Of a stretch of 64,000 nucleotides of DNA, positions 6,268-52,348 are shown one piece after another (position 1 is the stretch's first letter; each line of letters starts with the position of its first letter). Source of the DNA: Betaproteobacteria bacterium (GTDB lineage: Bacteria; Pseudomonadota; Gammaproteobacteria; Burkholderiales; SG8-41). Both the position numbers and the translations under genes were made by a program. The DNA lies in assembly GCA_016192825.1 (NCBI GenBank), contig JACPTK010000004.1, forward strand, positions 2,905 to 66,904, read 5' to 3'. Below the pieces are notes generated by a model that was not told where the DNA came from, did not search any database, and saw nothing but the letters and a program-made list of their open reading frames with translations.

Positions 6268-6379
6268 GGATGAGGGATGAGGGATGAGGGATGAGGGATG
6301 AGGGATGAGGGATGAGGGATGCGGGATGAGGGATGAGGGATGCGGGATGAGGGATGAGGGATGAGGGATGAGGGATGAC
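6268..6379 (+). repeat. Tandem heptamer array (GGATGAG) x16
   Basis: Counted directly: 16 contiguous 7-nt units. Units 8 and 11 are GGATGCG and the last unit is GGATGAC. The array starts 10 nt after the purL stop. Confidence 0.97.
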
Positions 6380-6390
6380 CCCCTCCAGCA

Positions 6391-6425
6391 GAAACGGCGC
6401 ACCCAGGTGCGCCGTTTCTTATTTG
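6391..6425 (+). terminator. Rho-independent terminator of purL
   Basis: 12-bp perfect stem GAAACGGCGCAC / GTGCGCCGTTTC with a 4-nt loop, followed by a T-rich tail (CTTATTTG). Confidence 0.7.
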
Positions 6426-6466
6426 TGACGCGTCACCAGTCACGAGTCACCAGTCACCAGTCACGC
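6425..6466. repeat. Tandem heptamer array GTCACCA/GTCACGA (5 units) preceded by palindromic GTGACGC
   Basis: Units are GTCACCA, GTCACGA, GTCACCA, GTCACCA, GTCACGC at 6432-6466. The array abuts the stop codon of the minus-strand PPIase gene. Confidence 0.92.
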
Positions 6467-7248
6467 TACTCAATTTTGGCCTTGGCGCGCAGCCCGGCGA
6501 GGGCCTTGTCATAGGCCAGCTTCCGCTGAAATTGCTGCATCTGCTGCTGCAGATTGGGCTTGACCTGCTCGTACGGCGGGAGCTGCTGCGCACGCACGTC
6601 GTCGAGCCGGATGATGTGCCAGCCGAAGTTGCTCTGGACCGGCGCTTCCGTCATCTGCCCTTTCTTGAGCCGGGTCAGCGCGTCGCCGAAAGGCTTGACG
6701 TACCGGAGAGCGAGGCTCCAGTCGAGCTCGCCGTTGCGCCCTTTGCTGCCGGCGTCCTTCGACTTCTCGCCGGCGAGTTTCTCGAAGCTGGCGCCGTTCC
6801 GGATCTGGGCAATGATCTCCTTTGCCTCGTCCTCGCTCTCCACGAGAATGTGGTGCGCCTTGTATTCCTGCTGTCCCTTTGCGCGCTCGTATTCCTTCTT
6901 CATGTCGTCTTCGCTGACCGGCGCGGGCCGGACCATTTCACCCAGATAGGCGCGCACCAGGACGCTTTGCCGCGCCAGATCGATCTGCGTCGCGACCTCC
7001 GGCTTCTTGTGCAGCCCCCGGCGCGTGGCTTCCTGGGCCAGCAATTCGTAGTCGATGAGCTCCTGCCGGACCGCGTTCCTGAGATCGGGCGAATCGGCGC
7101 GGCCCTGCGACGTGAGGTTGCGTATGAAAAGGTCCATGCGCAACTGCGGGATGGTGACGCCGTTGACCCTGGCAACGCCATTTTGAGCGTGCGCCGGGGA
7201 TGCCGCGAGCAGCCCGGCAAGCACGAGCGAAAATGCGAATGACTTCAT
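6466..7248 (-). CDS. Periplasmic peptidyl-prolyl cis-trans isomerase, parvulin (PpiC) type
   Basis: 260 aa with a signal peptide (MKSFAFSLVLAGLLAASPAHA) and a parvulin core (YKAHHILVESEDEAKEI.., GELDW.., FGWHIIRLDD). Confidence 0.85.
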   Translation of the reverse strand: MKSFAFSLVLAGLLAASPAHAQNGVARVNGVTIPQLRMDLFIRNLTSQGRADSPDLRNAVRQELIDYELLAQEATRRGLHKKPEVATQIDLARQSVLVRAYLGEMVRPAPVSEDDMKKEYERAKGQQEYKAHHILVESEDEAKEIIAQIRNGASFEKLAGEKSKDAGSKGRNGELDWSLALRYVKPFGDALTRLKKGQMTEAPVQSNFGWHIIRLDDVRAQQLPPYEQVKPNLQQQMQQFQRKLAYDKALAGLRAKAKIE

Positions 7249-7273
7249 CGGGGATTCCTTTCGGTAACAGTGA

Positions 7274-7537
7274 TCAGATCTCGCCAGGGGCGTAGGCCTT
7301 GATGGCGAGCGCGTGAATTTCCTTCTTCATCATCGGCCCCAGCGCCTCGTACACCATCCGGTGCCGCAGCTGGATCGGCTTGCCGGCGAACGCCGGAGAC
7401 ACGATCACGAGACGGTAATGCCCGCCGCCGCCCCTGGCGCCTTCGTGCCCGGCGTGCTGGTGCGATTCGTCGAGGATCTCGAGCGATTCGGGACTGAGTG
7501 ATGCGAGCTGCCGCTGGATCCGCTCCGCCACGGTCAT
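7274..7537 (-). CDS. BolA family protein
   Basis: 87 aa from ATG 7537 (MTVAERIQRQL..). BolA signature: DESHQHAGH..HYRLVIVSPAFAGK..RHRMVY. The upstream part of the track ORF reads through a REP element. Confidence 0.8.
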   Translation of the reverse strand: MTVAERIQRQLASLSPESLEILDESHQHAGHEGARGGGGHYRLVIVSPAFAGKPIQLRHRMVYEALGPMMKKEIHALAIKAYAPGEI

Positions 7538-7589
7538 GTCAGGGGCTCCTGTAGGTGCTCGCGCAAATGCCTGACAAGGCATTTGCACC

Positions 7590-7631
7590 TCGAATCGCCC
7601 CTCTCCCCTCGGGAGAGGGCGGGGGTGAGGG
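7590..7631. repeat. REP-like palindromic element (CCCCTCTCCCCTCGGGAGAGGGCGGGGGTGAGGG type), copy 1
   Basis: Internal palindrome CTCTCCC..GGGAGAG. A near-identical copy lies in inverted orientation at 15101-15143. Flanked by hairpins at 7563-7586 and 7631-7666. Confidence 0.7.
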
Positions 7632-7663
7632 ATGAGCATCGTCAAGCATTTCCACGATGCTCA

Positions 7664-8203
7664 TTAATCGGCCTTCTTGTCCTCGATGTAGCGGGCGAGC
7701 ATCAGCGCCTGCAGCACGACGAACGCCAGCATCAGGCCGATGCCGCCGAAGAGCTTGAAGTTGACCCAGGCGTCGGTCGAGAAGTTGAAGGCGACGGCGA
7801 GGTTCAGGGCGCCCATCAGCGCGAAAAAGCCGACCCAGCTGGCGAGCAGCCGGCCCCACACGGCCTCGGGCAGCGACACCTGTCCCTCCATCATGGCGCG
7901 GATCAGGTTTTTCCGGAATCCCAGCGCGGCCACGGCGAGCGCGACGGCAAACAGCCAGTAGAGCACGGTCGGCTTCCACTTGATGAAGGTCTCGTCCTGC
8001 AACACCAGCGTGGCGCCGCCGAATACCACGATCACCGCCAGGCTCGCCCACTGCATGTTTTCGATCTTGCGCCGCCGCAGCCAGGTCCAGCCGATCTGCG
8101 CGAAGGTCGCGGCGATCGCCACCGCCGTGGCCACATAGATGCCGTAGAACTTGAAAGCGACGAAGAACAGGACGACCGGGAAGATGTCGAACAGGAATTT
8201 CAT
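7664..8203 (-). CDS. yciB: Intracellular septation protein A (YciB/IspZ)
   Basis: 179-aa polytopic membrane protein. The N-terminus [18 protein letters not shown] and the overall pattern are typical of YciB. Confidence 0.88.
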
Positions 8204-8248
8204 GGGCGGCTATTATCGCGCTTCGCGAGGAAATGGGAAACAGCAGAT

Positions 8249-9730
8249 CTAACGGTATCGGTCGGCGAGCGCCGGCGTTGCTTCCGTCCGACCCGGCCCA
8301 TTTCCTGATTCGTCCGGCAGCACCTTTCCTGGGTTCATGATGCCGAGGGGGTCGAACGTCGCTTTGAGCGCGCGCATCATCTCGAGTTCCACGCCGGCCT
8401 TGTAACGGGACATTTCCAGCAGCTTGGACTGGCCGATGCCGTGCTCGGCGCTGAAGCTGCCGTGGTGGCGGGCCACGATGTCGAACACGCACTGGGTGAC
8501 GTCGTTTGCCTCGCGTGCCGCGGCGTCCGCGCGCAGCCGCCCCGGCACGAACGCGTTGTAATGCAGGTTGCCATCGCCCAGGTGACCGAAACAGATCACG
8601 TCGATCCCGGGGAATCGTGCCTGCAGCGCGGCCTGCGCCTCTGCGATGAACGCCGGCACCCGGCTCACCGCCACCGCGATATCGTGGCGGTAGAGCATGC
8701 CCGGCTCCGCGCGCGCGGCTTCGGGGATGGTTTCGCGCAGTTTCCACAGCCCCTGCGACTGGCCTGCGTTCTCCGCGATGACGGCGTCGCTCGCCAGGCC
8801 GCGCTCCATGGCCGCGCCAAGCGCTCCCTCGAGCTCGGCGCGGATGGCGCCGCCTTCGCGCACGTCGCCAAGCTCGGCCAGCACGTACCAGCCATGCGGC
8901 GCGGGCAGCGGATCGCGGGTGCCCGGGATGTGGCGCAGGACGAGATCGAGGCAGTTGCGGGAAATCAGCTCGAATGCCGTCATCTTGTCGCCGCAGTGGC
9001 TCCGCAGCAGCGCCAGCAACTCGAGCGCGGCCTCGGGCGATGGCACTGCGGCCCATGCCGTCGCGCCGGAACGGGGCAGGGGGAAGAGCTTCAAGACGGC
9101 GGCGGTGATCACGCCCAGCGTGCCTTCGGCGCCGATAAAAATCTGTTTGAGGTCGTAGCCCGTGTTGTCCTTGCGAAGGCCCCGCATGCCGTCCCAGATG
9201 CGCCCGTCCGGCAGGACGACCTCCAGGCCCAGCACGAGGTCGCGCGTGTTGCCGTAGCGCAGCACGTTGACGCCACCGGCGTTGGTCGAAAGATTGCCGC
9301 CGATCTGGCAGCTGCCTTCCGCGCCCAGGGACAGCGGGAACAGGCGCGATGCCTCGCGCGCCGCCTGCTGGATGTTCGCGAGGATGCAGCCGGCCTCCAC
9401 GCTGAGGGTGTTGTTCAGCGCATCCACCCCGAGTATGCGGTTCATGCGCGCGAGGCTGAGCACGATTTCCCCGCCTTTCTCGCGTGGCACGGACGCGCCG
9501 CACATGCCGGTGTTGCCCCCTTGCGGCACGATGGGGGTGCGGGTTTCGGCGCAAAGCTTGACCACCGCGGCGACCTCGGCGGCGTTGGCCGGGCGCACCA
9601 CGGCGGGCGTTGCGCCGCGGTGGACGCCGCGCCAGTCGACGGTGTAGGGCTCGAGGTCGCCCGGATCGGTGAGCAGCCCCGGCGGGCCGACGATGGCGGC
9701 GAGGCGCTCGATGAGCGTGTGGGCGGTCAT
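8249..9730 (-). CDS. FAD-linked oxidase (GlcD / D-2-hydroxyacid dehydrogenase family)
   Basis: 493 aa. It has a PCMH-type FAD-binding region (PIVPQGGNTGMCGASVP) and C-terminal FAD-oxidase motifs (GHLGDGNLHYN, SAEHGIG). Confidence 0.85.
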   Translation of the reverse strand: MTAHTLIERLAAIVGPPGLLTDPGDLEPYTVDWRGVHRGATPAVVRPANAAEVAAVVKLCAETRTPIVPQGGNTGMCGASVPREKGGEIVLSLARMNRILGVDALNNTLSVEAGCILANIQQAAREASRLFPLSLGAEGSCQIGGNLSTNAGGVNVLRYGNTRDLVLGLEVVLPDGRIWDGMRGLRKDNTGYDLKQIFIGAEGTLGVITAAVLKLFPLPRSGATAWAAVPSPEAALELLALLRSHCGDKMTAFELISRNCLDLVLRHIPGTRDPLPAPHGWYVLAELGDVREGGAIRAELEGALGAAMERGLASDAVIAENAGQSQGLWKLRETIPEAARAEPGMLYRHDIAVAVSRVPAFIAEAQAALQARFPGIDVICFGHLGDGNLHYNAFVPGRLRADAAAREANDVTQCVFDIVARHHGSFSAEHGIGQSKLLEMSRYKAGVELEMMRALKATFDPLGIMNPGKVLPDESGNGPGRTEATPALADRYR

Positions 9731-9742
9731 ACCGGCATTATA

Positions 9743-9778
9743 GAAAAAACAAGCCGGCCTCTTGCGGATGCCGGCTTG
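9743..9778 (-). terminator. Rho-independent terminator downstream of aconitase 1
   Basis: On the minus strand there is a 9-bp stem CAAGCCGGC / GCCGGCTTG followed by TTTTTTC. Confidence 0.6.
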
Positions 9779-9827
9779 CGGGGTAACGGGTGCCCGGTAA
9801 GGCGCCCGTCGTATCCTGGGTCATGCG

Positions 9828-9872
9828 GCGGCGGCGATCAGCTCGCGTAAGAATCCTGCAATGCCGTGCGTC

Positions 9873-9901
<29 letters not shown>
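9828..9901. repeat. 25-nt direct duplication of the 3' end of acnA (copies 9828-9852 and 9877-9901)
   Basis: GCGGCGGCGATCAGCTCGCGTAAGA occurs twice, 49 nt apart. One copy encodes the last residues (..RELIAAA) and the other lies just downstream of the stop. Confidence 0.85.
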
Positions 9902-12557
<2,656 letters not shown>

Positions 12558-16790: not shown

Positions 16791-17828
16791 GTGCGAGCAA
16801 TCGCGCTGATCCCCGGTGACGGCATCGGCCCCGAGGTGACCCGGGCGGCGCGCGATGTCGTTGCCGCGTCCGGCGCGGCGGTGCGGTTCGAGGAAGTCGT
16901 GGCCGGCCTGCGGGCGGAGCGGGAATTCGGAACGCCGCTGCCGGGCGCGGTGTTTGAAGCAATCGCCAGGACGAAGCTCGCGCTGAAGGGGCCCACGCAG
17001 ACGCCTTTCGGCGGCGCCTACCGCGTCAACGTCGAGCGCGGCGGCGGCAGGCGCGACTATCCGAGCATCACCATCGCGCTGCGCAAGGAACTGGACCTCT
17101 TCGTCAACGTGAGGCCGGTCAAGAATTATCCTGGCGTCGCCTCGCGCTTCGAGCGCGTGGATCTCGTGATCTTCCGCGAGAACAGCGAGGACCTCTACCT
17201 CGGCAGGGAGCGCATGGTGGACGAGGGCACCGCGGAGGCGGTCAAGATCATCACGGCGCGGGCGACCGCCCGCGCCACGCGCTTCGCGCTGGATTACATG
17301 CGGCGCGAGGGGCGGCGCCGGCTCACGATCGGGCACAAGGCCAACGTGCTGAAGATGACCGACGGGCTGTTCCTGAAGACCGCCCAGGACATCGCCAGGG
17401 ATTCCGGATTCGCCGTGGACCAGCGCGTGGTGGACGCCCTGTGCATGGAGCTGGTGATGCGCCCGGAAGCGTTCGATTGCCTGCTGCTGCCCAATCTCTA
17501 CGGCGACATCATCTCGGACCTCGGCGCGGGACTGGTCGGTGGTCTCGGCGTCGCGCCGGGCGCCAATATCGGCACGGAATGCGCGATGTTCGAGGCGGTT
17601 CACGGCTCGGCGCCGGACATCGCGGGCAAGGACATCGCCAACCCGATGGCGGCGATACTGTCCGCCGGAATGTTGCTGCGATACATTGGGGACGCATCGG
17701 CGGCTGACCGCATCGAGACGGCGTTGACCGCCGTGCTGCGCGAGCAGCGCGCCGTCACGCGCGATCTGGGCGGCACGGCCGGGACGCGGGCGATGACCGA
17801 TGCCATCATTGAGAAGTTGACGGCGTGA
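16791..17828 (+). CDS. Isocitrate/isopropylmalate dehydrogenase family oxidative decarboxylase
   Basis: 345 aa with GTG start. Motifs: IPGDGIGPEV, NLYGDIISDLGAGLVGGLG, EAVHGSAPDIAGK. Confidence 0.85.
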   Translation: MRAIALIPGDGIGPEVTRAARDVVAASGAAVRFEEVVAGLRAEREFGTPLPGAVFEAIARTKLALKGPTQTPFGGAYRVNVERGGGRRDYPSITIALRKELDLFVNVRPVKNYPGVASRFERVDLVIFRENSEDLYLGRERMVDEGTAEAVKIITARATARATRFALDYMRREGRRRLTIGHKANVLKMTDGLFLKTAQDIARDSGFAVDQRVVDALCMELVMRPEAFDCLLLPNLYGDIISDLGAGLVGGLGVAPGANIGTECAMFEAVHGSAPDIAGKDIANPMAAILSAGMLLRYIGDASAADRIETALTAVLREQRAVTRDLGGTAGTRAMTDAIIEKLTA

Positions 17829-17860
17829 CGTGATACCGCGTGACGTGAAGATTCGTGAGG
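17823..17860 (+). repeat. Degenerate direct repeat GCGTGACGTGA (period 15) overlapping the stop codon
   Basis: The 11-mer occurs at 17823-17833 and 17838-17848, with a partial third copy. It is a GTGA-rich relative of the heptamer arrays but does not have period 7. Confidence 0.5.
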
Positions 17861-17867
17861 GAGCAGG

Positions 17868-26120: not shown

Positions 26121-26254
26121 TGCATGAAAATCTTAATGAAGATTCGATAGGATGCCCGATTAAAGAATGGACGGCCTGAGCATTTTCGCGCTGAAGGGCG
26201 CGATGTGGTTCGCAACCGTGCTGTCGTCAAAATAGCCACGATCGAAGTCCATTC

Positions 26255-27244: not shown

Positions 27245-27275
27245 GGTAATGGGTAATGGGTAATGAGTAATGAGC
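27245..27275 (+). repeat. Heptamer array GGTAATG x3, AGTAATG, AGCATCA (left arm of an inverted pair)
   Basis: Read directly. The reverse-complement array lies at 27663-27690. Confidence 0.92.
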
Positions 27276-27287: not shown

Positions 27288-27665
27288 TTAGGACCGGACT
27301 GCCTTGTGAAGCCCCGTTACCAATCTGGAGACTTGATTTACAACATTGAAAATTGGATCGTTGCTATTGATGTAGCCCAGATCACTGGCGATAAGCAACT
27401 GTGTCTCCAGTTCGCTCAGCGAGCCTCGTGCCACGTTCAAGAACTGAGCGAACTCCCTGTTTCCTGTGCGCGCGGCACCCTCTGCAATATTGCTGGGAAT
27501 TGAGACTGCGGCGCGACGCATCTGCGAGACCAATCCAAACATCTCTTCCCTGGGAAATTTCTGTGTTAGTAAATAGACGTCCTTGACCAAAGCTCTGGAT
27601 ACCTTCCAGGCCTCCAGCTTGTGGTGGCCCCTTCCAGCACTTTCTGGTTGTCGTTCAGCGCCCAT
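27288..27665 (-). CDS. Four-helix-bundle protein (23S rRNA intervening-sequence protein / S23p family, Avd-like)
   Basis: About 125 aa. Family signature: ..KLEAWK..L....Y.LT..FP..E.FGL.SQMRRAAVSIPSNIAEG..R....EF.QFL..A.GSL.ELETQL. G+C is visibly lower than in the neighbouring genes. The gene is bracketed by inverted heptamer arrays. Confidence 0.9.
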   Translation of the reverse strand: MGAERQPESAGRGHHKLEAWKVSRALVKDVYLLTQKFPREEMFGLVSQMRRAAVSIPSNIAEGAARTGNREFAQFLNVARGSLSELETQLLIASDLGYINSNDPIFNVVNQVSRLVTGLHKAVRS

Positions 27666-27690
27666 CACTCATTACCCATTACTCATTACC
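27663..27690 (+). repeat. Heptamer array CATCACT, CATTACC, CATTACT, CATTACC (right arm, reverse complement of GGTAATG)
   Basis: Read directly. It contains the start of the four-helix-bundle gene and the last codons plus the stop of E1alpha. Confidence 0.92.
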
Positions 27691-28743
27691 CAGTGCAGCG
27701 GCCCGCTGGCGCGCGAGTGCTGCGGGCAACTGCGCGTAGAGATGGTCGAACATCTGCGCTGCGGCCGGAGGCGGCGTGTCGAGGTAGGCCTGCGCCGCGG
27801 CCTGCACCTGCGCGTTGCATTCCCTGAGCAGCGCGTCCTCCTTCGACTTGTCCCAGGCGCCGGATTCCATGAGGTGGGCGCGCAGCCGCACAAGGGGCTC
27901 GAGCTTCCATGCTTCCGCCAACTCGTCCGGGCTGCGGTAGCGCGAGGCGTCGTCGGCCGTGGTGTGGTCGGCGAGCCGGTAGGCAAGGGCCTCGATCAGC
28001 GTGGGGCCGCCGCCGGCGCGGGCTTTCGCGAGCGCCTGCTCCATGGCGTGGCGCACGGCGATGACATCGTTGCCGTCCACCTGCAGGCCTTCGATGCCGG
28101 CGGCGATGGCCTTCTGGGCGAGCGTGTGCGCCGCGGTCTGCTTCGCCCGCGGCACCGAGATCGCCCACTGATTGTTGGCGACGACGAAGACGAGGGGCAG
28201 CTTCCAGACGCCGGCGGCATTGAGACCCTCGTAGAAATCGCCCTTGGAGGTTGCGCCGTCGCCCAGCGCGCACACCGCCACGCGCGGCTCCCGCCGCAGC
28301 TTCATGGCGTAGGCGACTCCGACCGCGTGTGTTGCGTGCGCGGCGATGGTGATGCAAACAGGGAAGTCCCGGCGAGGGCCGGCATAATCGCTTCCGCGTT
28401 CGTCCCCGCCCCAATAGAGAAACAGCTCCTTGAGCGTCACGCCGCGCATCAGCTGCGCGCCGTTCTCGCGGTAGGTCACGAGCAGGACATCGTCCCTCGC
28501 CATCGCGGAACCGACCCCGGCTTCGATCGCCTCGTTGCCGAGCATCGAGGCGAAAGTACCGAGCTGTCCGGTGCGCTGCAGCGCGATCGCCTTGGCGTCA
28601 TAGGCGCGCATCAGCGCCATCCAGCGGTAGAGGGAGACGAGTATCCGGGGATCATGCGCGAAGCCCGGCAGGGCCTGCAGCGCCTTGCCGTGGGGATCGA
28701 GGAACTGTAAGTACCGGACCTCGAATTTGGCGGTGATATTCAA
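27679..28743 (-). CDS. 2-oxoacid dehydrogenase E1 component alpha subunit (TPP-dependent)
   Basis: 354 aa with a TPP motif region (GDGATSKGDFYEGLNAAGVWKLPLVFVVANNQWAIS). The C-terminal ..GNE-stop is encoded by the heptamer array. Confidence 0.9.
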   Translation of the reverse strand: MNITAKFEVRYLQFLDPHGKALQALPGFAHDPRILVSLYRWMALMRAYDAKAIALQRTGQLGTFASMLGNEAIEAGVGSAMARDDVLLVTYRENGAQLMRGVTLKELFLYWGGDERGSDYAGPRRDFPVCITIAAHATHAVGVAYAMKLRREPRVAVCALGDGATSKGDFYEGLNAAGVWKLPLVFVVANNQWAISVPRAKQTAAHTLAQKAIAAGIEGLQVDGNDVIAVRHAMEQALAKARAGGGPTLIEALAYRLADHTTADDASRYRSPDELAEAWKLEPLVRLRAHLMESGAWDKSKEDALLRECNAQVQAAAQAYLDTPPPAAAQMFDHLYAQLPAALARQRAAALGNE

Positions 28744-28891: not shown

Positions 28892-29995
28892 ATGAATCTC
28901 GGTTTCTTCACGATGCCGATGCACCCGCCGGGGCGAAACTATACGCAGACGCTCCGGGAGGATCGCGAGGCGGTGCTGCTGGCGGACCGTCTGGGATATT
29001 GCGAGGCCTTCATCGGCGAGCACATCACCGATGTGTGCGAGACCATCCCGTCGTGCCTGACGTTTATCGCGAGCGTCGCCCACGACACCCGGCAGATCCG
29101 GCTCGGCAGCGGCACCGTCAACCTGCCCAACAACCACCCGGTCCAGGTGGCCGCGCACGTTGCGATGGTGGATCACATGCTGGAGGGGCGTTTCATTTTC
29201 GGCATCGGACCGGGCGGGCTGCGCTCCGACATGGAGGTGTGCGGAAACCTGGACGCCGATCGCAACGCGATGTTCGTCGAATGCATCGACCAGATCCTCG
29301 CGATCTGGGCGGGCGATGCGCCGTACAACCTGAAGGGACGCTACTGGAACATCTCCACCGAGCGCACGCTCATCCGCGAGGCGGGACAGGGCGTGATCCT
29401 GAAGCCGTTCCAGAAGCCGCATCCCCCCATCGTGGTGACCGTCATCGCACCGCACTCGAAGGGGCTGGTCGCGGCGGCGCAGCGCGGCTGGCGACCGATT
29501 TCCGCCAATTTCCTGCAACCCCGTTGGGCGGCGACGCACTGGCCCATGTATCGGCAGGGTCGCGAGCTTGCCGGTCAACGCGCCGATCCACGGGATTGGC
29601 GCGTTTGCAAGAGCATCTTCGTGGCCGACGACGACGTCGCCGCGCGCCGTTACGCTACAAGCGCGGACGGGCCGTACGGATTCTATTACTGGAACCTGCT
29701 GACCAAGCGCAGGGGCCATGGCAACGTGGACATCTTCAAGCACGATCTGGGCGTTCCGGACGCCGCGGTGACCGTGGACTACCTGCTCGACCGGCTGGTG
29801 ATCTGCGGCGGCGTCGCGAGCGTGGTGGACCAGCTGCTCGCGTTCCGCGAAACGGTGGGGGATTTCGGCACGCTGCTCTACTGCGGCCACGACTGGGCCG
29901 ATCCGAAGCTCGCGCGCCGCTCGATGGAGCTGATGGCGGAGAAGGTGATGCCCGCAGTCAACGCGGCGCTTGGCCCTGCGTCATGCGCCGCTTGA
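28892..29995 (+). CDS. Luciferase-like (LLM class) flavin-dependent monooxygenase
   Basis: About 367 aa from ATG 28892 (MNLGFFTMPMHPPGR..). It shows an LLM pattern (IGEH.., LGSGTVNLPNNHP). The track ORF starts earlier, at 28766. Confidence 0.82.
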   Translation: MNLGFFTMPMHPPGRNYTQTLREDREAVLLADRLGYCEAFIGEHITDVCETIPSCLTFIASVAHDTRQIRLGSGTVNLPNNHPVQVAAHVAMVDHMLEGRFIFGIGPGGLRSDMEVCGNLDADRNAMFVECIDQILAIWAGDAPYNLKGRYWNISTERTLIREAGQGVILKPFQKPHPPIVVTVIAPHSKGLVAAAQRGWRPISANFLQPRWAATHWPMYRQGRELAGQRADPRDWRVCKSIFVADDDVAARRYATSADGPYGFYYWNLLTKRRGHGNVDIFKHDLGVPDAAVTVDYLLDRLVICGGVASVVDQLLAFRETVGDFGTLLYCGHDWADPKLARRSMELMAEKVMPAVNAALGPASCAA

Positions 29996-30023
29996 GTGAT
30001 GAGAGATGAGTGACGGGTGACGG
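29993..30023 (+). repeat. Short heptamer array TGAGTGA, TGAGAGA, TGAGTGA, CGGGTGA
   Basis: Four units; the first TGA is the LLM gene stop codon. There is no clear inverted partner. Confidence 0.6.
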
Positions 30024-30055
30024 AAAACAAAACGCCCCGCGTGGTTCTCGCGCGG
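30024..30055 (-). terminator. Weak candidate terminator of aconitase 2 (possibly bidirectional)
   Basis: Short GC stem CCGCG / CGCGG with a 9-nt loop. On the minus strand it is followed by GGCGTTTTGTTTT. Confidence 0.4.
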
Positions 30056-33359: not shown

Positions 33360-33414
33360 TCACCAGTCACGAGTCACGAGTCACGAGTCACGAGTCACGA
33401 GTCACGAGTCACGA
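33360..33414. repeat. Tandem heptamer array: TCACCA + (GTCACGA) x7 perfect
   Basis: Counted directly: seven identical units at 33366-33414, between the prpD stop and the thioredoxin-fold gene start. Confidence 0.97.
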
Positions 33415-33420
33415 GCAGTA

Positions 33421-34863
33421 TCAGACCACGAACCGGTCCACGAATTCATTGACGGGCGTCGCTTCCAGGCGCTGCTGGTCATGGCACAGGGACAGTATCG
33501 CCTGCTGCTGCTTGGGCGCGAAACGCCGCGCGAGATGGGTGCGGAACTTGGCTTCGAGCAGCGGCACGCCTTCCTTGCGACGGCGGCGGTGGCCGACGGG
33601 GTATTCGACGGCGACCGGGTCCGTCTTCGAGCCGTCGTTGAAGAATATCTGCACAGCGTTGGCGATCGAGCGCTTGGCCGGGTCCATATAGTCCCGGCTC
33701 CAGCGCTTGTTTTCCACGCACACCATCCGCGGCCGCAACCGGTCGATTCGGGGATCGGCCGCCGCGCCATCCTCGTAATCGGAGGCCGCGAGCGTGCCCT
33801 TCATGAGCCCGATGGCGACCATGTACTGCAGGCAGTGGTCGCGGTCCGCCGGGTTGTGAAGGGGGCCCTTCTTGTCGATGATGCGGATGGCGGATTCGTG
33901 GGTCGTGATGACGATTTTCTTCACCGCATCGAGGCGGTCACGGACTTGCGGGTGCAGCTGGATCGCGGCTTCGACGGCGGTCTGGGCGTGAAACTCGGCG
34001 GGAAAGGAAATCTTGAACAGCACATTTTCCATGACGTAGGAGCCGAACGGCCGCTTGAAGCGGAACGGCCTGCCCCCGAACAGCACGTCGTAGAAGCCCC
34101 AGGTCTTCGCGGTAAGGGCGGAGGGGTAGCCCATCTCGCCCTTCAACGCGAACAGCGCCAGCCGGACCGCGCGGCTGGTGGCATCGCCCGCCGCCCACGA
34201 TTTGCGCGACCCGGTGTTGGGCGCGTGGCGGTAGGCGCGCAGGGACTGCCCGTCGATCCACGCGTTGGAGACCGCGTTGACGATTTCCTCGCGGGTGCCG
34301 CCCATCATGTGGGTGACGACGGCGGCGGAGGCGACCTTGACCAGCACCACGTGATCCAGCCCGACGCGGTTGAAGCTGTTTTCGAGCGCGATCACGCCCT
34401 GGATTTCGTGCGCCTTGATCATCGCGGTGAGCACGTCGCGCATCACCGGCGGCTTCGCGCCCCGGGAGAGGCGCGTGCGCGCCAGCCAGTCGGCGGTGGC
34501 AAGGATGCCACCCAGGTTGTCGGACGGATGGCCCCACTCGGCGGCGAGCCAGGCGTCGTTGAAATCGAGCCAGCGGACCATCGTGCCGAGGTTGAAGGCC
34601 GCCGTCACGGGGTCGAGCTGGTACGGCGTGCCCGGCACCTTCGCGCCGTCGGGCACCACGGTGCCCGCGACGATGGGACCGAGCAGCTTGGTGCACGCCG
34701 GGTACTCAAGCGCTTCCAGCCCGCAGCCCAGCGTGTCCATCAGGCACAGCCGCGCCGTGTTGTAGGCTTCATCGCTCTTGATCGGGAATCCGGCGACGTA
34801 CTCGGCGATGTCCGTCAGAACTTTATCTGGTTTCGGACGGGTATTGGAGATGCGGGAGCTCAT
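33421..34863 (-). CDS. prpD: 2-methylcitrate dehydratase
   Basis: 480 aa with the MmgE/PrpD family pattern ([11 protein letters not shown].., [13 protein letters not shown]) and adjacency to prpC. Confidence 0.9.
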
Positions 34864-34884
34864 GTGCCTCGAAACGCGCGGCTA

Positions 34885-34956
34885 GCGGATCGCGACTCGC
34901 GGATGGTGACAGCTTGCTTGATTGGCCCGGTCACGAGCCGCGATCCGCGAGTCACT
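34885..34956. repeat. Inverted pair of GC-rich heptamer arrays (GCGGATC GCGACTC GCGGATG GTGACAG ... GGTCACG AGCCGCG ATCCGCG AGTCACT)
   Basis: Left arm 34885-34912 and right arm 34929-34956. GACTCGCGGAT pairs with ATCCGCGAGTC. The right arm overlaps the prpC stop. Confidence 0.75.
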
Positions 34957-36124: not shown

Positions 36125-36166
36125 GTCACCAGTCACCAGTCACCAGTCACGAGTCACGAGTCACGG
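36125..36166. repeat. Tandem heptamer array (GTCACCA) x3 (GTCACGA) x2 GTCACGG
   Basis: Six contiguous units between the mdh stop and the prpC start. Confidence 0.96.
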
Positions 36167-39899: not shown

Positions 39900-39901
39900 C
39901 G

Positions 39902-40008
39902 GTGAATCGTGATTGGTGATTAGTGAGCGGACCAAACCGAAGAGCGACGCATGATGGACTTCCGTCTTCCCGCTTGTCACCAATCACTAAACACCACTCA
40001 CTAATCAC
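39902..40008. repeat. Inverted pair of heptamer arrays in the sdhA|sdhB spacer (GTGAATC GTGATTG GTGATTA GTGAGCG ... TTGTCAC CAATCAC TAAACAC CACTCAC TAATCAC)
   Basis: Left arm 39902-39929 and right arm 39974-40008. There is a 12-nt perfect complement: GTGATTAGTGAG (39916-39927) with CTCACTAATCAC (39997-40008). Confidence 0.9.
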
Positions 40009-41188: not shown

Positions 41189-42487
41189 ATGGCAGAGAAA
41201 CTGGCAACCCTGAGCTTCAGTGACGGCACGCCGTCGGTCGATTTCCCCGTGCTGGGCGGCAGCGAAGGCCCGGAAGTGATCGACGTGCGGGCACTCTACG
41301 GCAAGACCGGCAAGTTCACCTACGACCCCGGCTTCATGTCCACGGCCAGCTGCCGCTCCACCATCACCTATATCGACGGCGACAAGGGGATACTGCAATA
41401 CCGCGGCTACCCGATCGAGCAGATCGCCGAGCATTGCACGTTCCTCGAGGTGGCCTACCTGATCCTCAACGGCGAGCTGCCGAACAAGAAGCAGCTCGAG
41501 GAATTCGTGACTACCGTCACCCACCACACCATGGTGCACGAGCAGCTCGGGCGCTTTTACTCGGGTTTCCGGCGCGACGCGCACCCGATGGCGGTGCTGT
41601 GCGGGGTGGTGGGCGCCCTGTCCGCCTTCTACCACGACTCGATCGATATTCACGACGAGCGCAGCCGGGAGATCGCGGCGTTCCGGCTGATCGCGAAGCT
41701 GCCGACCATCACGGCGATGACCTACAAATACAGCGCCGGACAGCCGTTCATGTACCCGAAGAACGCGCTGTCCTACGTGGACAACTTCCTCTACATGATG
41801 TTCGGCACGCCGTGCGAGGAGTACAAGCCCAACCGGACCCTGTCGCGGGCGATGGACCGCATCCTGATCCTTCACGCCGACCACGAGCAGAACGCGTCGA
41901 CCTCCACGGTGCGGCTCGCCGGCTCGACCGGCGCCAACCCGTTCGCGTGCATCTCCGCCGGCATCGCGAGCCTGTGGGGCCCGGCCCACGGCGGCGCCAA
42001 CGAGGCGGTGCTCAAGATGCTCGGCGAAATCGGCGACGTGAAGAACATTCCCGCGTTCATCAAGCGCGTCAAGGACAAGGACGGCCACGCCATGCTGATG
42101 GGCTTCGGCCACCGCGTCTACAAGAACTACGACCCGCGCGCCAAGCTCATCCAGAAGACCTGCCACGAGGTGCTGGAGGAGCTCGACCTCAAGGACGACA
42201 AGCTGTTCAAGCTCGCGATCGCGCTGGAGAAGGTGGCGCTCGAGGACGAGTACTTCGTCAAGCGCAAGCTCTATCCCAACGTGGATTTCTATTCCGGCAT
42301 CGTCTACAAGGCGCTCGGCATTCCGGTCGCGATGTTCACCGCGATATTCGCGCTCGCCCGCACGGTGGGTTGGATCGCCCAGTGGAAGGAGCTGATCAGC
42401 GACCCGGATCAGAAGATCGGGCGCCCGCGGCAGCTCTTCACGGGCGCGGCGCGCCGCGACTTCGTGCCCATGAACAAGCGAAAGTGA
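41189..42487 (+). CDS. gltA: Citrate synthase (type II, hexameric type)
   Basis: 432 aa from ATG 41189 ([13 protein letters not shown]..). Motifs: [30 protein letters not shown]. The track ORF starts earlier, at 41063. Confidence 0.95.
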
Positions 42488-42571
42488 TTCGTGAGTCGTG
42501 AATCGTGATTCGAGGGCGTATCGTGTGCGGACCATAGCGGGCCGAATCACGAATCACCCATCACGATTCAC
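42484..42571. repeat. Inverted pair of heptamer arrays in the gltA|sucA spacer (GTGATTC GTGAGTC GTGAATC GTGATTC ... GAATCAC GAATCAC CCATCAC GATTCAC)
   Basis: Left arm 42484-42511, whose first unit contains the gltA TGA. Right arm 42544-42571. The centre is 32 nt. Confidence 0.92.
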
Positions 42572-42596
42572 GCTCTTGGGTTTCTGAGGCGCAGCC

Positions 42597-45449: not shown

Positions 45450-45483
45450 GCGGCAATTCGCAGCCGCCGCTGCGAATTGCCGC
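45450..45483 (+). other. 15-bp perfect hairpin immediately after the sucA stop
   Basis: GCGGCAATTCGCAGC-CGCC-GCTGCGAATTGCCGC, followed by an A/T-rich sequence but no clean T-run. Confidence 0.5.
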
Positions 45484-45609
45484 TAATTGAAATTCTGAAA
45501 TGGATATAGGTGAGGTTGGCTGCGGGAACGTTTCCCGTCCTAGAATGAGGTGTCCAGGCGAGTTGGAAATGAACGTTGCACTGCCCCATTCAATCATGTT
45601 CTCTAGGTT

Positions 45610-45643
45610 AGGATTTTTTCGCGCGCCAGCGCGAAAAAATCCT
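45610..45643 (+). promoter_or_regulatory. 14-bp hairpin abutting the sucB Shine-Dalgarno
   Basis: AGGATTTTTTCGCG-N6-CGCGAAAAAATCCT. Its right arm ends 1 nt before GGAG (45644-45647). Confidence 0.4.
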
Positions 45644-46887: not shown

Positions 46888-46893
46888 AAGGGC

Positions 46894-46978
46894 GTGAATG
46901 GTGAGTGGTGAGTGGTGAATGGCAGAAACGGCCGGTTTCCGGGTTCAGCCCAATCACTACTCACCAATCACTATTCAC
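46894..46978. repeat. Inverted pair of heptamer arrays in the sucB|lpdA spacer (GTGAATG GTGAGTG GTGAGTG GTGAATG ... CAATCAC TACTCAC CAATCAC TATTCAC)
   Basis: Left arm 46894-46921 and right arm 46951-46978. The centre is 29 nt and contains a small GAAAC..GTTTC stem. Confidence 0.92.
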
Positions 46979-46989
46979 GCAGTTCAATC

Positions 46990-48445: not shown

Positions 48446-48452
48446 TAAATGC

Positions 48453-48577: not shown

Positions 48578-48584
48578 GCTGTGA

Positions 48585-48618
48585 GCAGCCTGTCGGAATG
48601 CCAAGTCCGACGGGCTGC
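48585..48618. repeat. REP-like hairpin GCAGCCTGTCGG-AATGCCAAGT-CCGACGGGCTGC (family with 52064 and 62663)
   Basis: 12-bp stem with one mismatch. It shares stem and loop sequence with the two other copies. Confidence 0.7.
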
Positions 48619-48698
48619 CAGGAACCGTTCAACGGACCGTGTTTCCGGGTAGCCGTTGCCAATCCTGCTTTCATTCAGGCCGGCTCCAGGAATGGTGA

Positions 48699-49868: not shown

Positions 49869-49877
49869 GGACGGAAC

Positions 49878-50864
49878 ATGGAATCCTTCAAGGCCTATCG
49901 CATCTTCAGCGAGAACGACCGGGTGGCCGGGCGGGTCGTCGACGCGCGACTGGAAGAGCTGTCGGCGGGCGAGGTGGTGTTCCGGGCCGCGTACTCGAGC
50001 GTCAACTACAAGGATGCGCTGGCGGCGACCGGGACCGGCGGCAGGATCATCAAGGCTTTTCCGCGCATCGGCGGGATAGACGCCGCCGGCACGGTGATTT
50101 CGTCCGCTGATCCACGGCTCAAGGCCGGAGATGAGGTGATCTGCACGAGCTACGAATTCGGCGTTGGCCACGACGGCGGCTACTCCCAGGTGTGCCGGGT
50201 GCCCGCCAACTGGATCGTGCCGCTGCCCAAAGGGCTCACGCTGCACGAAGCGGGATCTCTCGGCGTCGCGGGTTATACCGCGGGGCTTGCCGTGGAGCTG
50301 CTGGAGCTGAACGGAATGGCGCCCAGCCGGGGAAACGTCCTGGTCAACGGCGCGACCGGGGGCGTGGCGACACTCGCCATCGATATGCTGGCTCGCCTCG
50401 GGTATCGGGTGGTCGCGGTCACCGGCAAGGACGCCGAGCACGGATTCCTGAAGAAACTCGGAGCGGCGGAAGTGCTGTCCCGCCACCAGCTGGAGTTGGG
50501 AACGCGCCCGCTGGAGAAACCGCTGTGGGCGGCTGCGTTCGACTCCGTGGGCGGCGATCAGCTCGCCTGGCTCATCCGCACCATGCAGCCCGAAGGCGTC
50601 ATCGCGAGCTTCGGCAACGCGGGCGGCATCGAGTTCAAGGCCACGGTGCTGCCCTTTATCCTGCGCGGCGTGCGGCTGATCGGCGTCGATTCCGGCTACA
50701 CGCCGATGCCGCTGCGCCGCAAGATCTGGGGCCGGCTCGCCGCCGACCTGAGGCCGCGGCATTTCGCCGACATCGTGAGCGCCATCACCCTGGAGGAACT
50801 GCCCGCTTATTTCGAGAAGATGCTCAAGGGGCAGATCAAGGGGAGGGCGGTCATCAAGCTCTGA
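49878..50864 (+). CDS. YhdH/YhfP-type MDR oxidoreductase (acrylyl-CoA reductase AcuI-like)
   Basis: 328 aa. Pattern: SSVNYKDALA.TG.G.I...P.I.GID.AG.V, VTGATGGV... Confidence 0.82.
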   Translation: MESFKAYRIFSENDRVAGRVVDARLEELSAGEVVFRAAYSSVNYKDALAATGTGGRIIKAFPRIGGIDAAGTVISSADPRLKAGDEVICTSYEFGVGHDGGYSQVCRVPANWIVPLPKGLTLHEAGSLGVAGYTAGLAVELLELNGMAPSRGNVLVNGATGGVATLAIDMLARLGYRVVAVTGKDAEHGFLKKLGAAEVLSRHQLELGTRPLEKPLWAAAFDSVGGDQLAWLIRTMQPEGVIASFGNAGGIEFKATVLPFILRGVRLIGVDSGYTPMPLRRKIWGRLAADLRPRHFADIVSAITLEELPAYFEKMLKGQIKGRAVIKL

Positions 50865-50867
50865 CCT

Positions 50868-50950
50868 CAGCTTCCAGCTTCCAGCAACCAGCAGTCAGCC
50901 GAAACCGCAAACTGGAAGCTCTAAGCTGGCAGCTCGTAGCTGATAGCTGC
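50868..50950. repeat. Inverted pair of heptamer arrays with unit CAGCTTC (CAGCTTC x2, CAGCAAC, CAGCAGT, CAGCCGA ... GGAAGCT CTAAGCT GGCAGCT CGTAGCT GATAGCT)
   Basis: Left arm 50868-50902 and right arm 50914-50948, between convergent genes. Confidence 0.85.
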
Positions 50951-50952
50951 GG

Positions 50953-51933
50953 TTATTCCGGCTCGACGCCGGCGAGCTTCACCAGCTCCGCGAACCGCTT
51001 GATATTGGAGACAACCAGTTTCCTGAATTCCTCCGGCGTGCCGCCGATCGGCGCGAGGCGGACCGCCTCGATGCGCTGCCGCATCCGGGGGTTCTTGAAG
51101 GCCTTCTGGATCTCGCCAGACAGCTTCGCCAGCACGGCGGGCGGGAGCTTCGCAGGCGACAGCAGTCCGTGCCAGCTGGGCGGCATATCGGTACCGGTTA
51201 CGCCGGACTCGACCATCGTCGGCACGTCCGGCAGGAAGGACGCGCGCTTGGCGCCGTTGTAGGCGATCGCCCTCGCGCGACCGGCCGTGATGTGCGGCAT
51301 GCCCAGCGGGGCCGTGGCGAACATGACCTGGATCTCGCCTGCCACCAGCGCCGTCAGCGCCGGGCCGGCGCCCTTGTAGGGCACGTGCACCATGTTGGCC
51401 CCGGTGCGAGCGGCGAACACGGCGGTCGCCATGTGGATGGTGTTGCCGACGCCCGGCGACCCGTAGGCGAGCTTGCCGCCCGGCTTGCGGGCCAGCTCGA
51501 TCAGTTCCTTCACGTTGCGCACGGGCAGCGACGGATTGACGACGACGATGTGCGCTTCGCCTTCGGTGATCTGCGAGACGGGCGTGAAATCCTTCACCGT
51601 GTCGTAGGGCAGCTTCTTCCGGACGCTGGGATTGACCACGAACGAACCGGACGTGTACAGCAGGGTGTGGCCGTCCGGAGTGGCCTTGGCGACGATGTCG
51701 GCGGCGATGATGCCGTTCGCGCCTGGCCGGTTGTCCACGACGAAGGTCTGTTTCGTCTGGGCGGCGAGCTGCTGCGCCAGGATGCGCGCCGTGGTGTCGG
51801 GCCCGCCCGCGCCGAAGCCGAGCACGATGCGCACGGGGCGGCCGGGATACTCGGCGCCGGCGGCACCGAACGACAGGAGCGCCGCAGCGAGCGGCGCCAG
51901 CAAGAACGGCGGCAGTAGCCTGAAGCTGACCAT
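50953..51933 (-). CDS. Bug/TctC-family substrate-binding protein (solitary)
   Basis: 326 aa with a signal peptide and Bug blocks (RPVRIVLGFGAGGPDTTARILAQ, DNRPGANGIIAAD, LPDVPTMVESG). Confidence 0.88.
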   Translation of the reverse strand: MVSFRLLPPFLLAPLAAALLSFGAAGAEYPGRPVRIVLGFGAGGPDTTARILAQQLAAQTKQTFVVDNRPGANGIIAADIVAKATPDGHTLLYTSGSFVVNPSVRKKLPYDTVKDFTPVSQITEGEAHIVVVNPSLPVRNVKELIELARKPGGKLAYGSPGVGNTIHMATAVFAARTGANMVHVPYKGAGPALTALVAGEIQVMFATAPLGMPHITAGRARAIAYNGAKRASFLPDVPTMVESGVTGTDMPPSWHGLLSPAKLPPAVLAKLSGEIQKAFKNPRMRQRIEAVRLAPIGGTPEEFRKLVVSNIKRFAELVKLAGVEPE

Positions 51934-52063
51934 GTCTCTCCTCGCTATGTAATGACGTGGGGCAATGCGTGCGTCAGCGGAATTGAAACGAAATGCAGTT
52001 AGCGGCGGGAGCGTAGTTGCCGCGGTACCGGATCTTGATGACCAGAGTGGCGGCTTCCATGCC

Positions 52064-52101
52064 TAGCAGCCTGTCGGAGTTGAAGTTCCGACAGGCTGCT
52101 A
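52064..52101. repeat. REP-like hairpin TAGCAGCCTGTCGG-N10-CCGACAGGCTGCTA
   Basis: 14-bp perfect stem. Confidence 0.8.
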
Positions 52102-52308
52102 AAGGCGAAGCGGCTCATTCCGCCGTCGACCGGCGTCACGGTGCCGGTAATATACCGCCTCCCGCGCGAGCCCCTCGAGCAGGTTGACGCGCCGCGCGGC
52201 GACGGCGGGCTTCACGCCTCCGCGCGCGAGGCCCAGCGCGATAGCGCGCCCGATGCCGCGCGAGGCGCCGGTGGCGAGGGCGGCGCGGGATTCAAGTTGA
52301 AGGTCCAT
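52099..52308 (-). pseudogene. Short-chain dehydrogenase/reductase remnant with a large internal deletion
   Basis: The N-terminus MDLQLESRAALATGASRGIGRAIALGLARGG.. (about 50 aa) is joined out of frame directly to an SDR C-terminal motif YITGTVTPVDGGM. The catalytic core is missing. Confidence 0.6.
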
Positions 52309-52320
52309 ATGTTGAAAGGC

Positions 52321-52348
52321 GTGACTGGTGACTGGTGATTGGTGGATT
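52321..52348 (+). repeat. Heptamer array GTGACTG x2, GTGATTG, GTGGATT
   Basis: Four units. It is the reverse-orientation, phase-shifted relative of the GTCACCA arrays. Confidence 0.8.

Follow-up and report, generated by a model that had tools for sequence, protein, structure and literature searches.

The 64-kb stretch of DNA studied here (hereafter the window) belongs to an uncultured betaproteobacterium (order Burkholderiales), has ~66% G+C, is 88% coding, and carries tandem arrays of 7-nt units between many of its genes. These arrays, densely placed here, are of a widespread type, the intergenic heptanucleotide repeats. Some of them form convergent inverted pairs, and one such pair encloses a gene of the S23p family (PF05635), an arrangement that recurs at S23p loci in many phyla. 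We read the pairs as stem-loop cassettes of operon RNAs that resemble the intervening sequences (IVSs) of 23S ribosomal RNA (rRNA), S23p being carried by one of them, and we assign this reading a probability of about 0.5.

Heptamer arrays in the operon spacers of the window

A first-pass annotation of the window had listed 18 period-7 arrays. All of them were recovered at the same positions by Tandem Repeats Finder and other scans, and Tandem Repeats Finder reported a period of 7 (or 14) at every locus of that list. The spans it returned are 6268-6378 (15.9 copies), 6432-6464, 27245-27272, 27661-27692, 29993-30013, 33360-33415 (8 copies), 34877-34904, 36125-36164, 39901-39926, 39977-40008, 42484-42512, 42543-42572, 46894-46922, 46950-46978, 50868-50885, 50912-50942, and 52321-52344. 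The excess over chance is very large: the motif GTGANNNGTGANNNGTGA, i.e., (GTGANNN)3, matches 31 times in the window with at most one mismatch, against 0.22 expected matches and a maximum of 2 in 100 shuffles. An autocorrelation scan of periods 4 to 15 gave eight strict arrays (345 nt) for period 7 and zero to two for each other period. Seven of the eight strict arrays lie outside coding sequence, in agreement with the intergenic placement proposed in the first-pass annotation.

The arrays are found at 9 of the 37 same-strand junctions, at 3 of the 4 convergent ones, and at none of the 4 clean divergent ones, with one more beside a truncated short-chain-dehydrogenase-like (SDR-like) gene; the earlier count of seven same-strand and three convergent loci is correct by this tally. 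The genes of the window are metabolic and include purL, a 2-oxoacid dehydrogenase operon (E1alpha-E1beta-E2), mdh-prpC-prpD-thioredoxin-acnA, and sdhCDAB-sdhE-gltA-sucA-sucB-lpd. Arrays start 0-10 nt past the upstream stop codon or overlap it, and the stop codon is inside the first unit at gltA, the prpC-like gene, the luciferase-like gene, and E1alpha. Six convergent inverted pairs were found, with 4-5 units per arm and loops of 11-44 nt, and those in same-strand spacers end right before the ribosome-binding site of the next cistron. An inverted pair is identical on both strands, so that orientation can be read only from the solo arrays. In the orientable ones, TGA lies on the strand that is sense for the gene upstream: this holds for five out of five cases in the window and for one more in a relative (L093). 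For the same reason, "GTGA arm first" was rejected as a rule of transcription orientation in the pairs: a G-rich first arm describes the configuration of a pair and not its orientation.

At least four families of units are found side by side in the window. GTGAnTn occurs at eight loci, and the minor units are GTAATGR, GGGATGA, GCGGATC, and CAGCTNN. The units had been taken for locus-specific. This holds for three of the six pairs compared, the S23p (GTAATGR), prpC-prpD (GCGGATC), and adh (CAGCTNN) pairs, which have private units. In contrast, GTGAWTC, GTGARTG, and GTGATTR belong to the single GTGAnTn family, and the arms of the sdhA-sdhB, gltA-sucA, and sucB-lpd pairs match those of the other pairs about as well as their own partners (scores of 13-20 across pairs vs 15-21 within). 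The S23p pair has the highest own-arm score of the six (23).

The S23p cassette

The only element of the window with an open reading frame (ORF) is the S23p cassette, on the minus strand between the genes for the E1 alpha and E1 beta subunits of a pyruvate dehydrogenase (PDH)-type complex. The ORF (27288-27665, 125 aa) encodes an S23p/four-helix-bundle protein that matches PF05635 (1.9e-36), TIGR02436 (2.4e-34), and PDB 2GSC (Xanthomonas XCC0516; 1.2e-31), the last being its closest solved relative, with five chains. Its annotated start is the ATG at 27665; a look-up of the exact protein with a GTG start gave no match. The 5' arm (27661-27692; GGGTAATGAGTAATGGGTAATGAGTGATGG on the minus strand) holds both the TAA stop of E1 alpha and the ATG of S23p. 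Read on the minus strand, the 3' arm (27245-27275) is CTCATTA twice, CCCATTA twice, and then CC, and 9 nt separate its end from the ATG of E1 beta. The element contains a stem of ~20-30 bp around the S23p ORF, as in an IVS, and the S23p gene does lie inside an inverted heptamer pair, as the first-pass annotation had it. No defence system matched the protein in PADLOC.

The cassette is kept at the PDH-type locus in samples with an S23p 86-100% identical to that of the window, with some substitutions in the units. In the closest genome relative (73% S23p identity), the same GTAATGA/GTGATGA arms stand behind an unrelated gene. One element with a 98%-identical S23p, from another sample, has five units in its 3' arm instead of four and an unchanged 5' arm. 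This bears out the copy-number polymorphism anticipated earlier, and such a gain is what slippage would produce in arms that tolerate any register.

A few contigs show other changes at the cassette. In L099 (~1410-1500) and L101 (1-73), the 5' arm is reduced to ~2 units by an insertion that contains a 23-nt direct repeat, GTGTCCAACTAACGCTGAAACTC, present twice and 25 nt apart; in L099 it also has a transposase-like ORF on the opposite strand. In both samples this looks like an insertion sequence that landed in the array. In L106 (1-853), the 3' end of E1 alpha lies on both sides of S23p, inverted and in two alleles (ending AALSDE and AALGNE before the stop), which may reflect a true inversion or else a chimera that arose in assembly by folding back through the inverted arms. 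Contigs with close S23p homologues are mostly <2 kb, consistent with repeat-flanked cassettes breaking short-read metagenome assemblies.

S23p loci across phyla

We surveyed 80 S23p loci from species-representative genomes of many phyla, of which 76 were testable for flanking stems. Period-7 arrays occur within 220 nt upstream of the gene at 38 loci and downstream at 41, compared with 1-4 loci for each other period from 4 to 12. Array density reaches 0.21 and 0.39 per 100-nt bin in the bins flanking the ORF vs ~0.01-0.05 elsewhere, in bins with full depth. The flanking inverted stem scored above all 70 displaced controls in 43 of the 76 loci, and 37 of these 43 stems have an internal period of 7. 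Hence, the arrangement noticed in the window is general. The most frequent arm length is four units (44/97), and the G-rich arm comes first at 37 loci vs 4.

The genes around S23p are those of operons. S23p has the same orientation as the gene upstream in 69 of 74 cases and as the gene downstream in 66 of 76. At the surveyed loci, it lies between dnaK and dnaJ, ahcY and metF, nuoF-like and nuoG-like genes, hisS and aspS, carA and carB, the alpha and beta genes of 2-oxoacid:ferredoxin oxidoreductase (POR), leuB-type and asd genes, and DUF444 and SpoVR genes. Xanthomonas and one Lysobacterales genome have the gene, flanked by GGGAATC-type arms, in the spacer from accB (read by eye) to accC. Rfam scans of the 80 loci placed none of them in rRNA and matched only two tRNAs, in the flanks. 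Plasmid homologues of S23p come mainly from Nostocales. In Nostoc punctiforme, (TCAGGAG)x5 immediately precedes the ATG of one copy, and the complement follows the ORF. Upstream of a Desulfobacterales S23p (L027, ~1050-1200), (GGTTTTC)n plus GGTAGGNGGGCATGG, i.e., the 5' arm and the start of the ORF, is present three times in tandem.

The units follow the protein. They differ at 1.0 position on average between loci with S23p identity of at least 65% and at 3.6 positions at 30-45%, a difference reached in none of 2,000 permutations of the unit labels, though for most pairs of high identity shared ancestry is a confounder. Some cross-phylum pairs at ~61-63% identity have units in common (Mariprofundus/Altibacter and Nitrospirae/Methylomirabilis). 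Judging from these sequences, the S23p ORF and its arms form one unit and are inherited together.

This co-variation also bears on the main rival explanation, in which the arrays are tandem DNA- or RNA-binding sites for a trans-acting protein, the pentameric S23p or another, that serve regulation or propagation of the cassette, with the hairpin as a secondary feature and each S23p lineage recognising a unit of its own. One would then expect similar S23p proteins to have similar units, and each genome to repeat one unit core at many loci, as it does (GTGAnTn here, CTCGTTN in the relative L002, GGGAATC in Xanthomonas). Solo arrays exist, a length of 4-5 units is preferred, and mismatches fall at the variable positions of the unit with the core kept, all of which would suit a binding site. 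The closest solved relative of the window's S23p has five chains, and Avd, a related protein, is a nucleic-acid-binding pentamer. However, the window has a single S23p gene for at least four unit families, simple binding sites do not require the convergent arms seen at 43 of 76 loci, the co-variation is equally explained if ORF and arms are inherited as one piece, and the binding itself is putative. We consider this explanation unlikely, though it is the one that competes most directly with ours.

Empty inverted pairs and their folding

The other five pairs of the window have no ORF. Three are in the plus-strand sdh-gltA-suc-lpd cluster: between sdhA and sdhB (39902-40008; GTGAnTn, 4+5 units, 44-nt loop), between gltA and sucA (42484-42571; GTGAWTC, 4+4 units, 32-nt loop, with the TGA of gltA in the first unit), and between sucB and lpd (46894-46978; GTGARTG, 4+4 units, 29-nt loop). 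Their predicted RNA folds have free energies (dG) of -46.4 kcal/mol (z -3.3), -52.2 kcal/mol (z -3.4), and -57.2 kcal/mol (z -8.5), respectively. A fourth, minus-strand pair (34885-34956) has GTGACTC/GCGGATC-type units and a 16-nt loop and lies between prpD and the prpC-like citrate synthase gene, whose TGA is in the first unit. The folds of these four same-strand pairs range from -43 to -57 kcal/mol (z -2.9 to -8.5). The fifth, a CAGCTNN pair of 5+5 units (50868-50948) to which no strand applies, lies at the convergent ends of zinc-dependent alcohol dehydrogenase (ADH)-type and TctC-type genes and folds into a weaker, bulged hairpin (-36.5 kcal/mol, z -2.4). The pairs form stems of 20-30 bp on either strand. 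The arms had been described as reverse complements at every paired locus. This stands for six pairs, though the complementarity is imperfect, and it fails for the arrays at 6268-6379 and 6425-6466, which are not a pair: GGGATGA and GTGACTG/GTGACTC are not complementary, and the two are solo arrays, each behind its own gene, with a separate hairpin between them. Complementarity is kept at the level of the unit cores, which stand in opposite orientation, and not base by base.

Stable stems between cistrons and at convergent gene ends could act as terminators or attenuators and so set how strongly neighbouring cistrons are expressed relative to each other. We regard this as very improbable. None of the heptamer pairs has a T-rich tail, a scan with a terminator consensus calls none of them, and the region from 26 to 46 kb has 10 terminator-like sites vs 10.8 expected, i.e., no excess. 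Two of the gene ends with a solo array have a canonical terminator hairpin of their own behind it (6390-6419 and 30037-30055), and several of the elements are within operons whose products must be made together (sdhA-sdhB, 2-oxoacid dehydrogenase E1 alpha-beta, accB-accC).

Turnover at orthologous spacers

We compared the tricarboxylic acid (TCA) cluster of the window with those of the relatives with the best SdhB matches among proteins of metagenome-assembled genomes (L002, L003, and L006; 92% SdhB identity). In the sdhA-sdhB, gltA-sucA, and sucB-lpd spacers, pairs are present in L002, L003, and the window, with units that differ. L002 has GTGACTC followed by GTTNCTC in both sdhA-sdhB and sucB-lpd, a period-14 array in gltA-sucA, and a core, CTCGTTN, that recurs across its loci; the gltA-sucA unit of L003 is AGTGTTT. 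In L006, two spacers, of 26 nt and 1 nt, have no array, and there is one vestige. The E1alpha-E1beta spacer is equally variable. The window has the S23p cassette there, L088/L089 have an empty heptamer pair, L093/L094 a solo four-unit array overlapping the stop codon, and L090/L091 a period-9 inverted pair. The period-9 arrays, with the unit ACAGGATTA / TAATCCTGT, occupy the E1alpha-E1beta and E1beta-E2 spacers (L090 2395-2500 and 3482-3597; L091 2370-2500). The first-pass annotation had proposed to look for presence/absence differences between relatives, and both these and differing units are found. It had also raised the possibility of an assembly artefact, against which the same kind of arrays is present in independent assemblies of relatives.

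Over shorter times, the arrays are stable. Five TCA-cluster spacers are invariant between contigs that are 99.87% identical, without any strain-level change of copy number there, which shows that the arrays are not hypermutable. Nor do they resemble the simple sequence repeats of phase-variable (contingency) loci: they follow stop codons, and the same five spacers do not vary.

Turnover of this kind might be expected of neutral microsatellites, produced by polymerase slippage and tolerated outside genes without a function, with S23p merely landing or surviving in the same permissive spacers. Heptamers are the commonest intergenic periodic repeat in a survey of 7006 genomes, which assigned them no function (PMC6344855), and an explanation based on the footprint of the polymerase has been proposed, as cited in PMC4692102. 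The 16-unit array, the polymorphism of four vs five units, and the rapid replacement of units between relatives fit such a process. But slippage alone gives neither a reverse-complement partner 16-45 nt away nor arms around a 375-nt ORF (43/76 loci). It leaves unexplained the mode of four units, the shared unit core, the 37:4 excess of G-rich-first configurations, and the sense orientation of the solo arrays, and the arrays of five spacers are unchanged across 99.9%-identical strains. We therefore hold neutral slippage to be improbable.

Alternatively, the elements could be mobile hairpins at the DNA level, similar to repetitive extragenic palindromes (REPs), their hairpin-forming doublets (REPINs), or miniature inverted-repeat transposable elements (MITEs), moved by a transposase in trans and with S23p as passenger cargo. 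The inverted doublets are intergenic and 3'-proximal like REPINs, the same S23p-plus-arms unit is found in different gene contexts, relatives differ in whether an orthologous site is filled or empty, and the homologue contigs are mostly <2 kb, as for repeats that break assemblies. Against this, no transposase, integrase, or reverse transcriptase was found among the genes of the 64-kb window, nor any RAYT (IS200/IS605-like) transposase. The copies share only the 7-nt unit, with no conserved interior or ends, and the same orthologous site can hold different units. No target-site duplications were seen at the junctions compared among relatives in the TCA cluster and the E1alpha-E1beta spacer. This leaves the mobile-hairpin explanation highly improbable. 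Overall, neutral slippage, REP/MITE-type transposition, and terminators fit the data less well than do the IVS-like cassettes or the binding protein.

Comparison with known systems

The first-pass annotation knew of no inverted heptamer pairs linked to an S23p-family gene in a high-GC proteobacterium. There are two precedents. Xanthomonas genomes have 183-186 GGGAATC-type arrays, mostly of four units and 89-93% intergenic, at a mean of 28 nt from the upstream ORF and with 70-75 convergent pairs per genome (Rehm et al. 2015, PMC4692102). Their lengths and sequences vary among related species, and they were read as G-quadruplex (G4) elements, with no mention of S23p (PMC4692102). The arrays of the window are similar in being from a high-GC proteobacterium, mostly of four units, intergenic, close to the end of the upstream ORF, and often in convergent pairs, and positions 1-4 and 6 of the unit are conserved in both (GGGAnTn there, GTGAnTn here). 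In the Xanthomonas loci that we retrieved, GGGAATC-type arrays bracket S23p genes. The window differs in its much higher density (18 arrays in 64 kb vs ~186 in a whole Xanthomonas genome) and in having GTGA instead of GGGA, so that most of its arrays lack G3 tracts and cannot form G-quadruplexes. The only one that fits the sub-class with at least four G3 tracts is that at 6268-6379.

The second precedent is the IVS of the Coxiella burnetii 23S rRNA gene, which has an S23p ORF, terminal inverted repeats that form a 28-bp stem (4 x 7), and GACAGAT repeated three to four times directly before the ORF start, in a copy number that varies between strains (PMC4990558). Heptamer repeats make up the 5' region of the stem, RNase III cleavage within it was found experimentally, and the IVS has a lower GC content than its host (PMC4990558). 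Excision by RNase III has also been demonstrated for other IVSs of rRNA. IVSs with S23p are also known in Leptospira, as cited in PMC4990558. The window's cassette has the same PF05635 ORF between inverted arms built from heptamers, a similar stem length, and a GC content below that of its host. Unlike the Coxiella IVS, it lies between protein-coding genes and not in helix 9, 25, or 45 of the 23S rRNA, as do all 80 surveyed loci; the window has no rRNA, no match in an Rfam scan, and no tRNA. A further difference is that most of the window's elements have no ORF; cleavage of their stems would be by analogy.

Heptamer repeats in general are well documented. The survey of 7006 prokaryotic genomes that found tandem heptamers to be the commonest intergenic periodic repeat saw "no clear clue" to their function (PMC6344855). 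TAACTGA repeats occur in Beggiatoaceae, cyanobacteria, and Bacteroidetes, and in Beggiatoaceae most of them are just upstream of start codons, with one inverted set reported (PMC4679880). In Geobacter, heptanucleotide sites were drawn as paired arrays on opposite strands (PMC2700814). The repeats of Beggiatoaceae, Bacteroidetes, and Geobacter and the cyanobacterial short tandemly repeated repetitive (STRR) sequences share with those of the window that they are intergenic tandem heptamers at many loci, whose units often contain stop triplets (TAACTGA, MTYCTGA), and the STRR-rich Nostocales are the main source of plasmid S23p homologues. They differ in taxa and units, and we found no link to S23p in PMC4679880 or PMC2700814.

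The inverted pairs also recall the REP elements, bacterial interspersed mosaic elements (BIMEs), and REPINs of enterobacteria and pseudomonads, which are intergenic, 3'-proximal, present at many loci, and often arranged in inverted doublets that form hairpins in operon transcripts. REPs are conserved palindromes of 20-40 nt that are copied whole and linked to RAYT transposases, and REP/BIME elements are thought to stabilise upstream mRNA. The heptamer pairs have nothing in common but the 7-nt unit: their arms are made of repeated units, each loop is unlike the others, and no transposase is present in the window. Avd, the accessory protein of diversity-generating retroelements (DGRs), has a homologous four-helix-bundle fold, and a relation to it can be detected in the window's S23p (PF22296 bAvd, E 8e-4; NF033474, E 1.8e-4). 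We rejected an assignment as Avd: the protein is far below the family cut-offs (21.7 bits vs 80 for NF033474), and there is neither a reverse transcriptase nor a template/variable repeat nearby.

The arrays themselves and an S23p gene inside a stem of heptamer repeats (the Coxiella IVS) are therefore known separately. Beyond the Coxiella paper, we found none that links S23p or four-helix-bundle genes to heptamer arrays in a search that did not extend to subscription journals or database family descriptions. What we did not find in this literature is S23p in the operon spacers of many phyla, inside inverted heptamer arrays whose units track the protein.

Solo arrays and other repeats

The largest solo array, (GGGATGA)x16 (6268-6379, plus strand), starts 10 nt past the stop codon of purL, and its TGA strand is the purL sense strand. 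On that strand, it has a G3 tract every 7 nt (G3N4), a G-quadruplex motif. A terminator-like hairpin with a 13-bp stem and a T-rich tail (6390-6419, plus strand) separates it from the solo array of ~5-6 GTGACTG/GTGACTC units on the minus strand (6425-6466), which abuts the stop codon of the gene for a PpiC-type isomerase (6466-7248, minus strand); the hairpin is part of neither array. Another plus-strand solo array, of ~4 TGAGTGA-type units (29993-30023), starts at the stop codon of the luciferase-like monooxygenase gene and is followed by the terminator-like hairpin at 30037-30055. Two are on the minus strand: (GTGACTC)x8 (33360-33414) between prpD, which stops at 33421, and the thioredoxin-like gene, and six units of GTGACTG/GTGACTC (36125-36166) between mdh and the prpC-like gene. 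The last solo array, ~4 units of GTGACTG (52321-52348, plus strand), lies upstream of a truncated, SDR-like minus-strand ORF, 10 nt from its start, and its orientation relative to a gene is ambiguous. This ORF of ~70 codons (52099-52310, start at 52310) is probably a pseudogene fragment; it occupies the 561-nt gap between the TctC-type gene and an enoyl-CoA hydratase gene. The spacer at 17823-17860 (plus strand), proposed earlier as a degenerate relative, is doubtful as a member: it is irregular and CGTGA-rich, with a direct repeat of ~16 nt and no period of 7.

Hairpins of other kinds are present as well. A second, unrelated repeat family consists of near-perfect intergenic palindromes, GCAGCCTGTCGG...CCGACAGGCTGC, at 48585-48618, 52066-52099, and 62666-62749, which look REP-like; a similar palindrome is found in the sucA-sucB spacer of L003 (8919-8960). 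The sucA-sucB spacer of the window (202 nt) has no heptamer array and contains the perfect hairpins GCGGCAATTCGCAGC...GCTGCGAATTGCCGC and GGATTTTTTCGCGCG...CGCGAAAAAATCC (45450-45487 and 45608-45640). In the E1beta-E2 spacer (26121-26254, minus-strand sense), a 10-nt inverted repeat that is not heptameric, AAGAATGGAC ... GTCCATTCTT, flanks ~90 nt and is conserved in an 89%-identical relative (L088, 3482-3615). Intercistronic hairpins of many kinds are present in this genome.

Discussion

How could such elements work? In a polycistronic RNA, two convergent arms of ~4 units (28 nt) of a G/T-rich heptamer would fold into a stem of 20-30 bp, typically with a loop of 16-45 nt. A stem of this length with perfect cores could be cut by RNase III or would at least impede exonucleases and ribosomes. 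We propose that such inserts are tolerated between cistrons because continuity of the RNA is not needed there, as is the case at the tips of rRNA helices. A first arm that is G-rich and bears stop codons would halt a ribosome that reads through, and with this order no C-rich stretch would lie unpaired while its partner is still to be made. The solo arrays consist of the same repeat, on the sense strand behind a gene, which puts TGA in all three frames. The arms would arise and change by slippage and could still pair in any register after the gain or loss of a unit. S23p and its arms would be inherited and transferred together, and the spacers after the stop codons of conserved operons would be recurrent sites of landing or of origin. 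The elements may have an insulating role, and S23p may have a part in making or using the repeats.

Several observations weigh against IVS-like cassettes, in addition to the shared ancestry noted above for the co-variation of unit and protein. RNase III processing in this organism is an analogy with the Coxiella IVS. Both strands fold about equally, where both were computed. The arms are imperfect complements, whose mismatches are mostly at variable positions of the unit and include many transversions, and there is no bias to G:U over A:C in either transcript (39 vs 46 at the S23p loci, 9 vs 12 in the empty pairs). Hence, there is no base-by-base covariation as for a selected RNA helix, contrary to the compensatory changes that the first-pass annotation had envisaged, and on this point explanations at the level of DNA or of protein binding fit equally well. 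The loops of the empty pairs, aligned with each other and with the S23p interior, gave nothing above shuffles, and six-frame searches with hmmsearch found no S23p remnants in the empty spacers of the window and of 15 related loci. With unrelated loops and no remnants, the link between empty pairs and S23p cassette consists of a shared architecture and related units. The solo arrays have no hairpin potential and require a separate rationale. The period-9 arrays in the E1alpha-E1beta spacer of relatives show that a period of 7 is preferred and not obligatory. Finally, the enrichment matched for junctions is moderate, with arrays at 37% of the S23p junctions vs 10% of the other junctions of the same loci (odds ratio 5.3, p = 0.0009), where the controls are only 40 junctions based on crude gene calls.

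These data do not support the view that all the arrays are one element family: besides the unrelated loops and the lack of S23p remnants, there are at least four unit families and no signature of a master copy or of footprints. The loop alignments gave no support to a master-copy, MITE, or deletion-derivative origin of the empty pairs.

A broader scenario can be offered tentatively. S23p heptamer cassettes might be pan-bacterial "intervening sequences" of operon transcripts, of which the IVS of 23S rRNA would be a special case. They might be the source or the trans partner of intergenic heptamers, each S23p lineage recognising or propagating its own unit, with ORF-less pairs and solo arrays as non-autonomous relatives. 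We regard this as possible, on balance less probable than not.

PF05635 is a very large family (7,969 of 8,000 scored candidates had E<=1e-10). It is named after a rare context, that in rRNA, and we found no paper that assigns it a function. If intergenic heptamers and S23p are linked, both questions can be addressed in organisms that grow in culture: the structure of XCC0516 of X. campestris is already solved (PDB 2GSC), and related Xanthomonas genomes have the accB-S23p-accC arrangement. In practical terms, the elements break short-read assemblies and supply stop and start codons that confuse gene callers. They also mark hot spots of turnover inside otherwise conserved operons. The association does not by itself establish a mechanism, but it provides a concrete, testable link between two long-standing puzzles.

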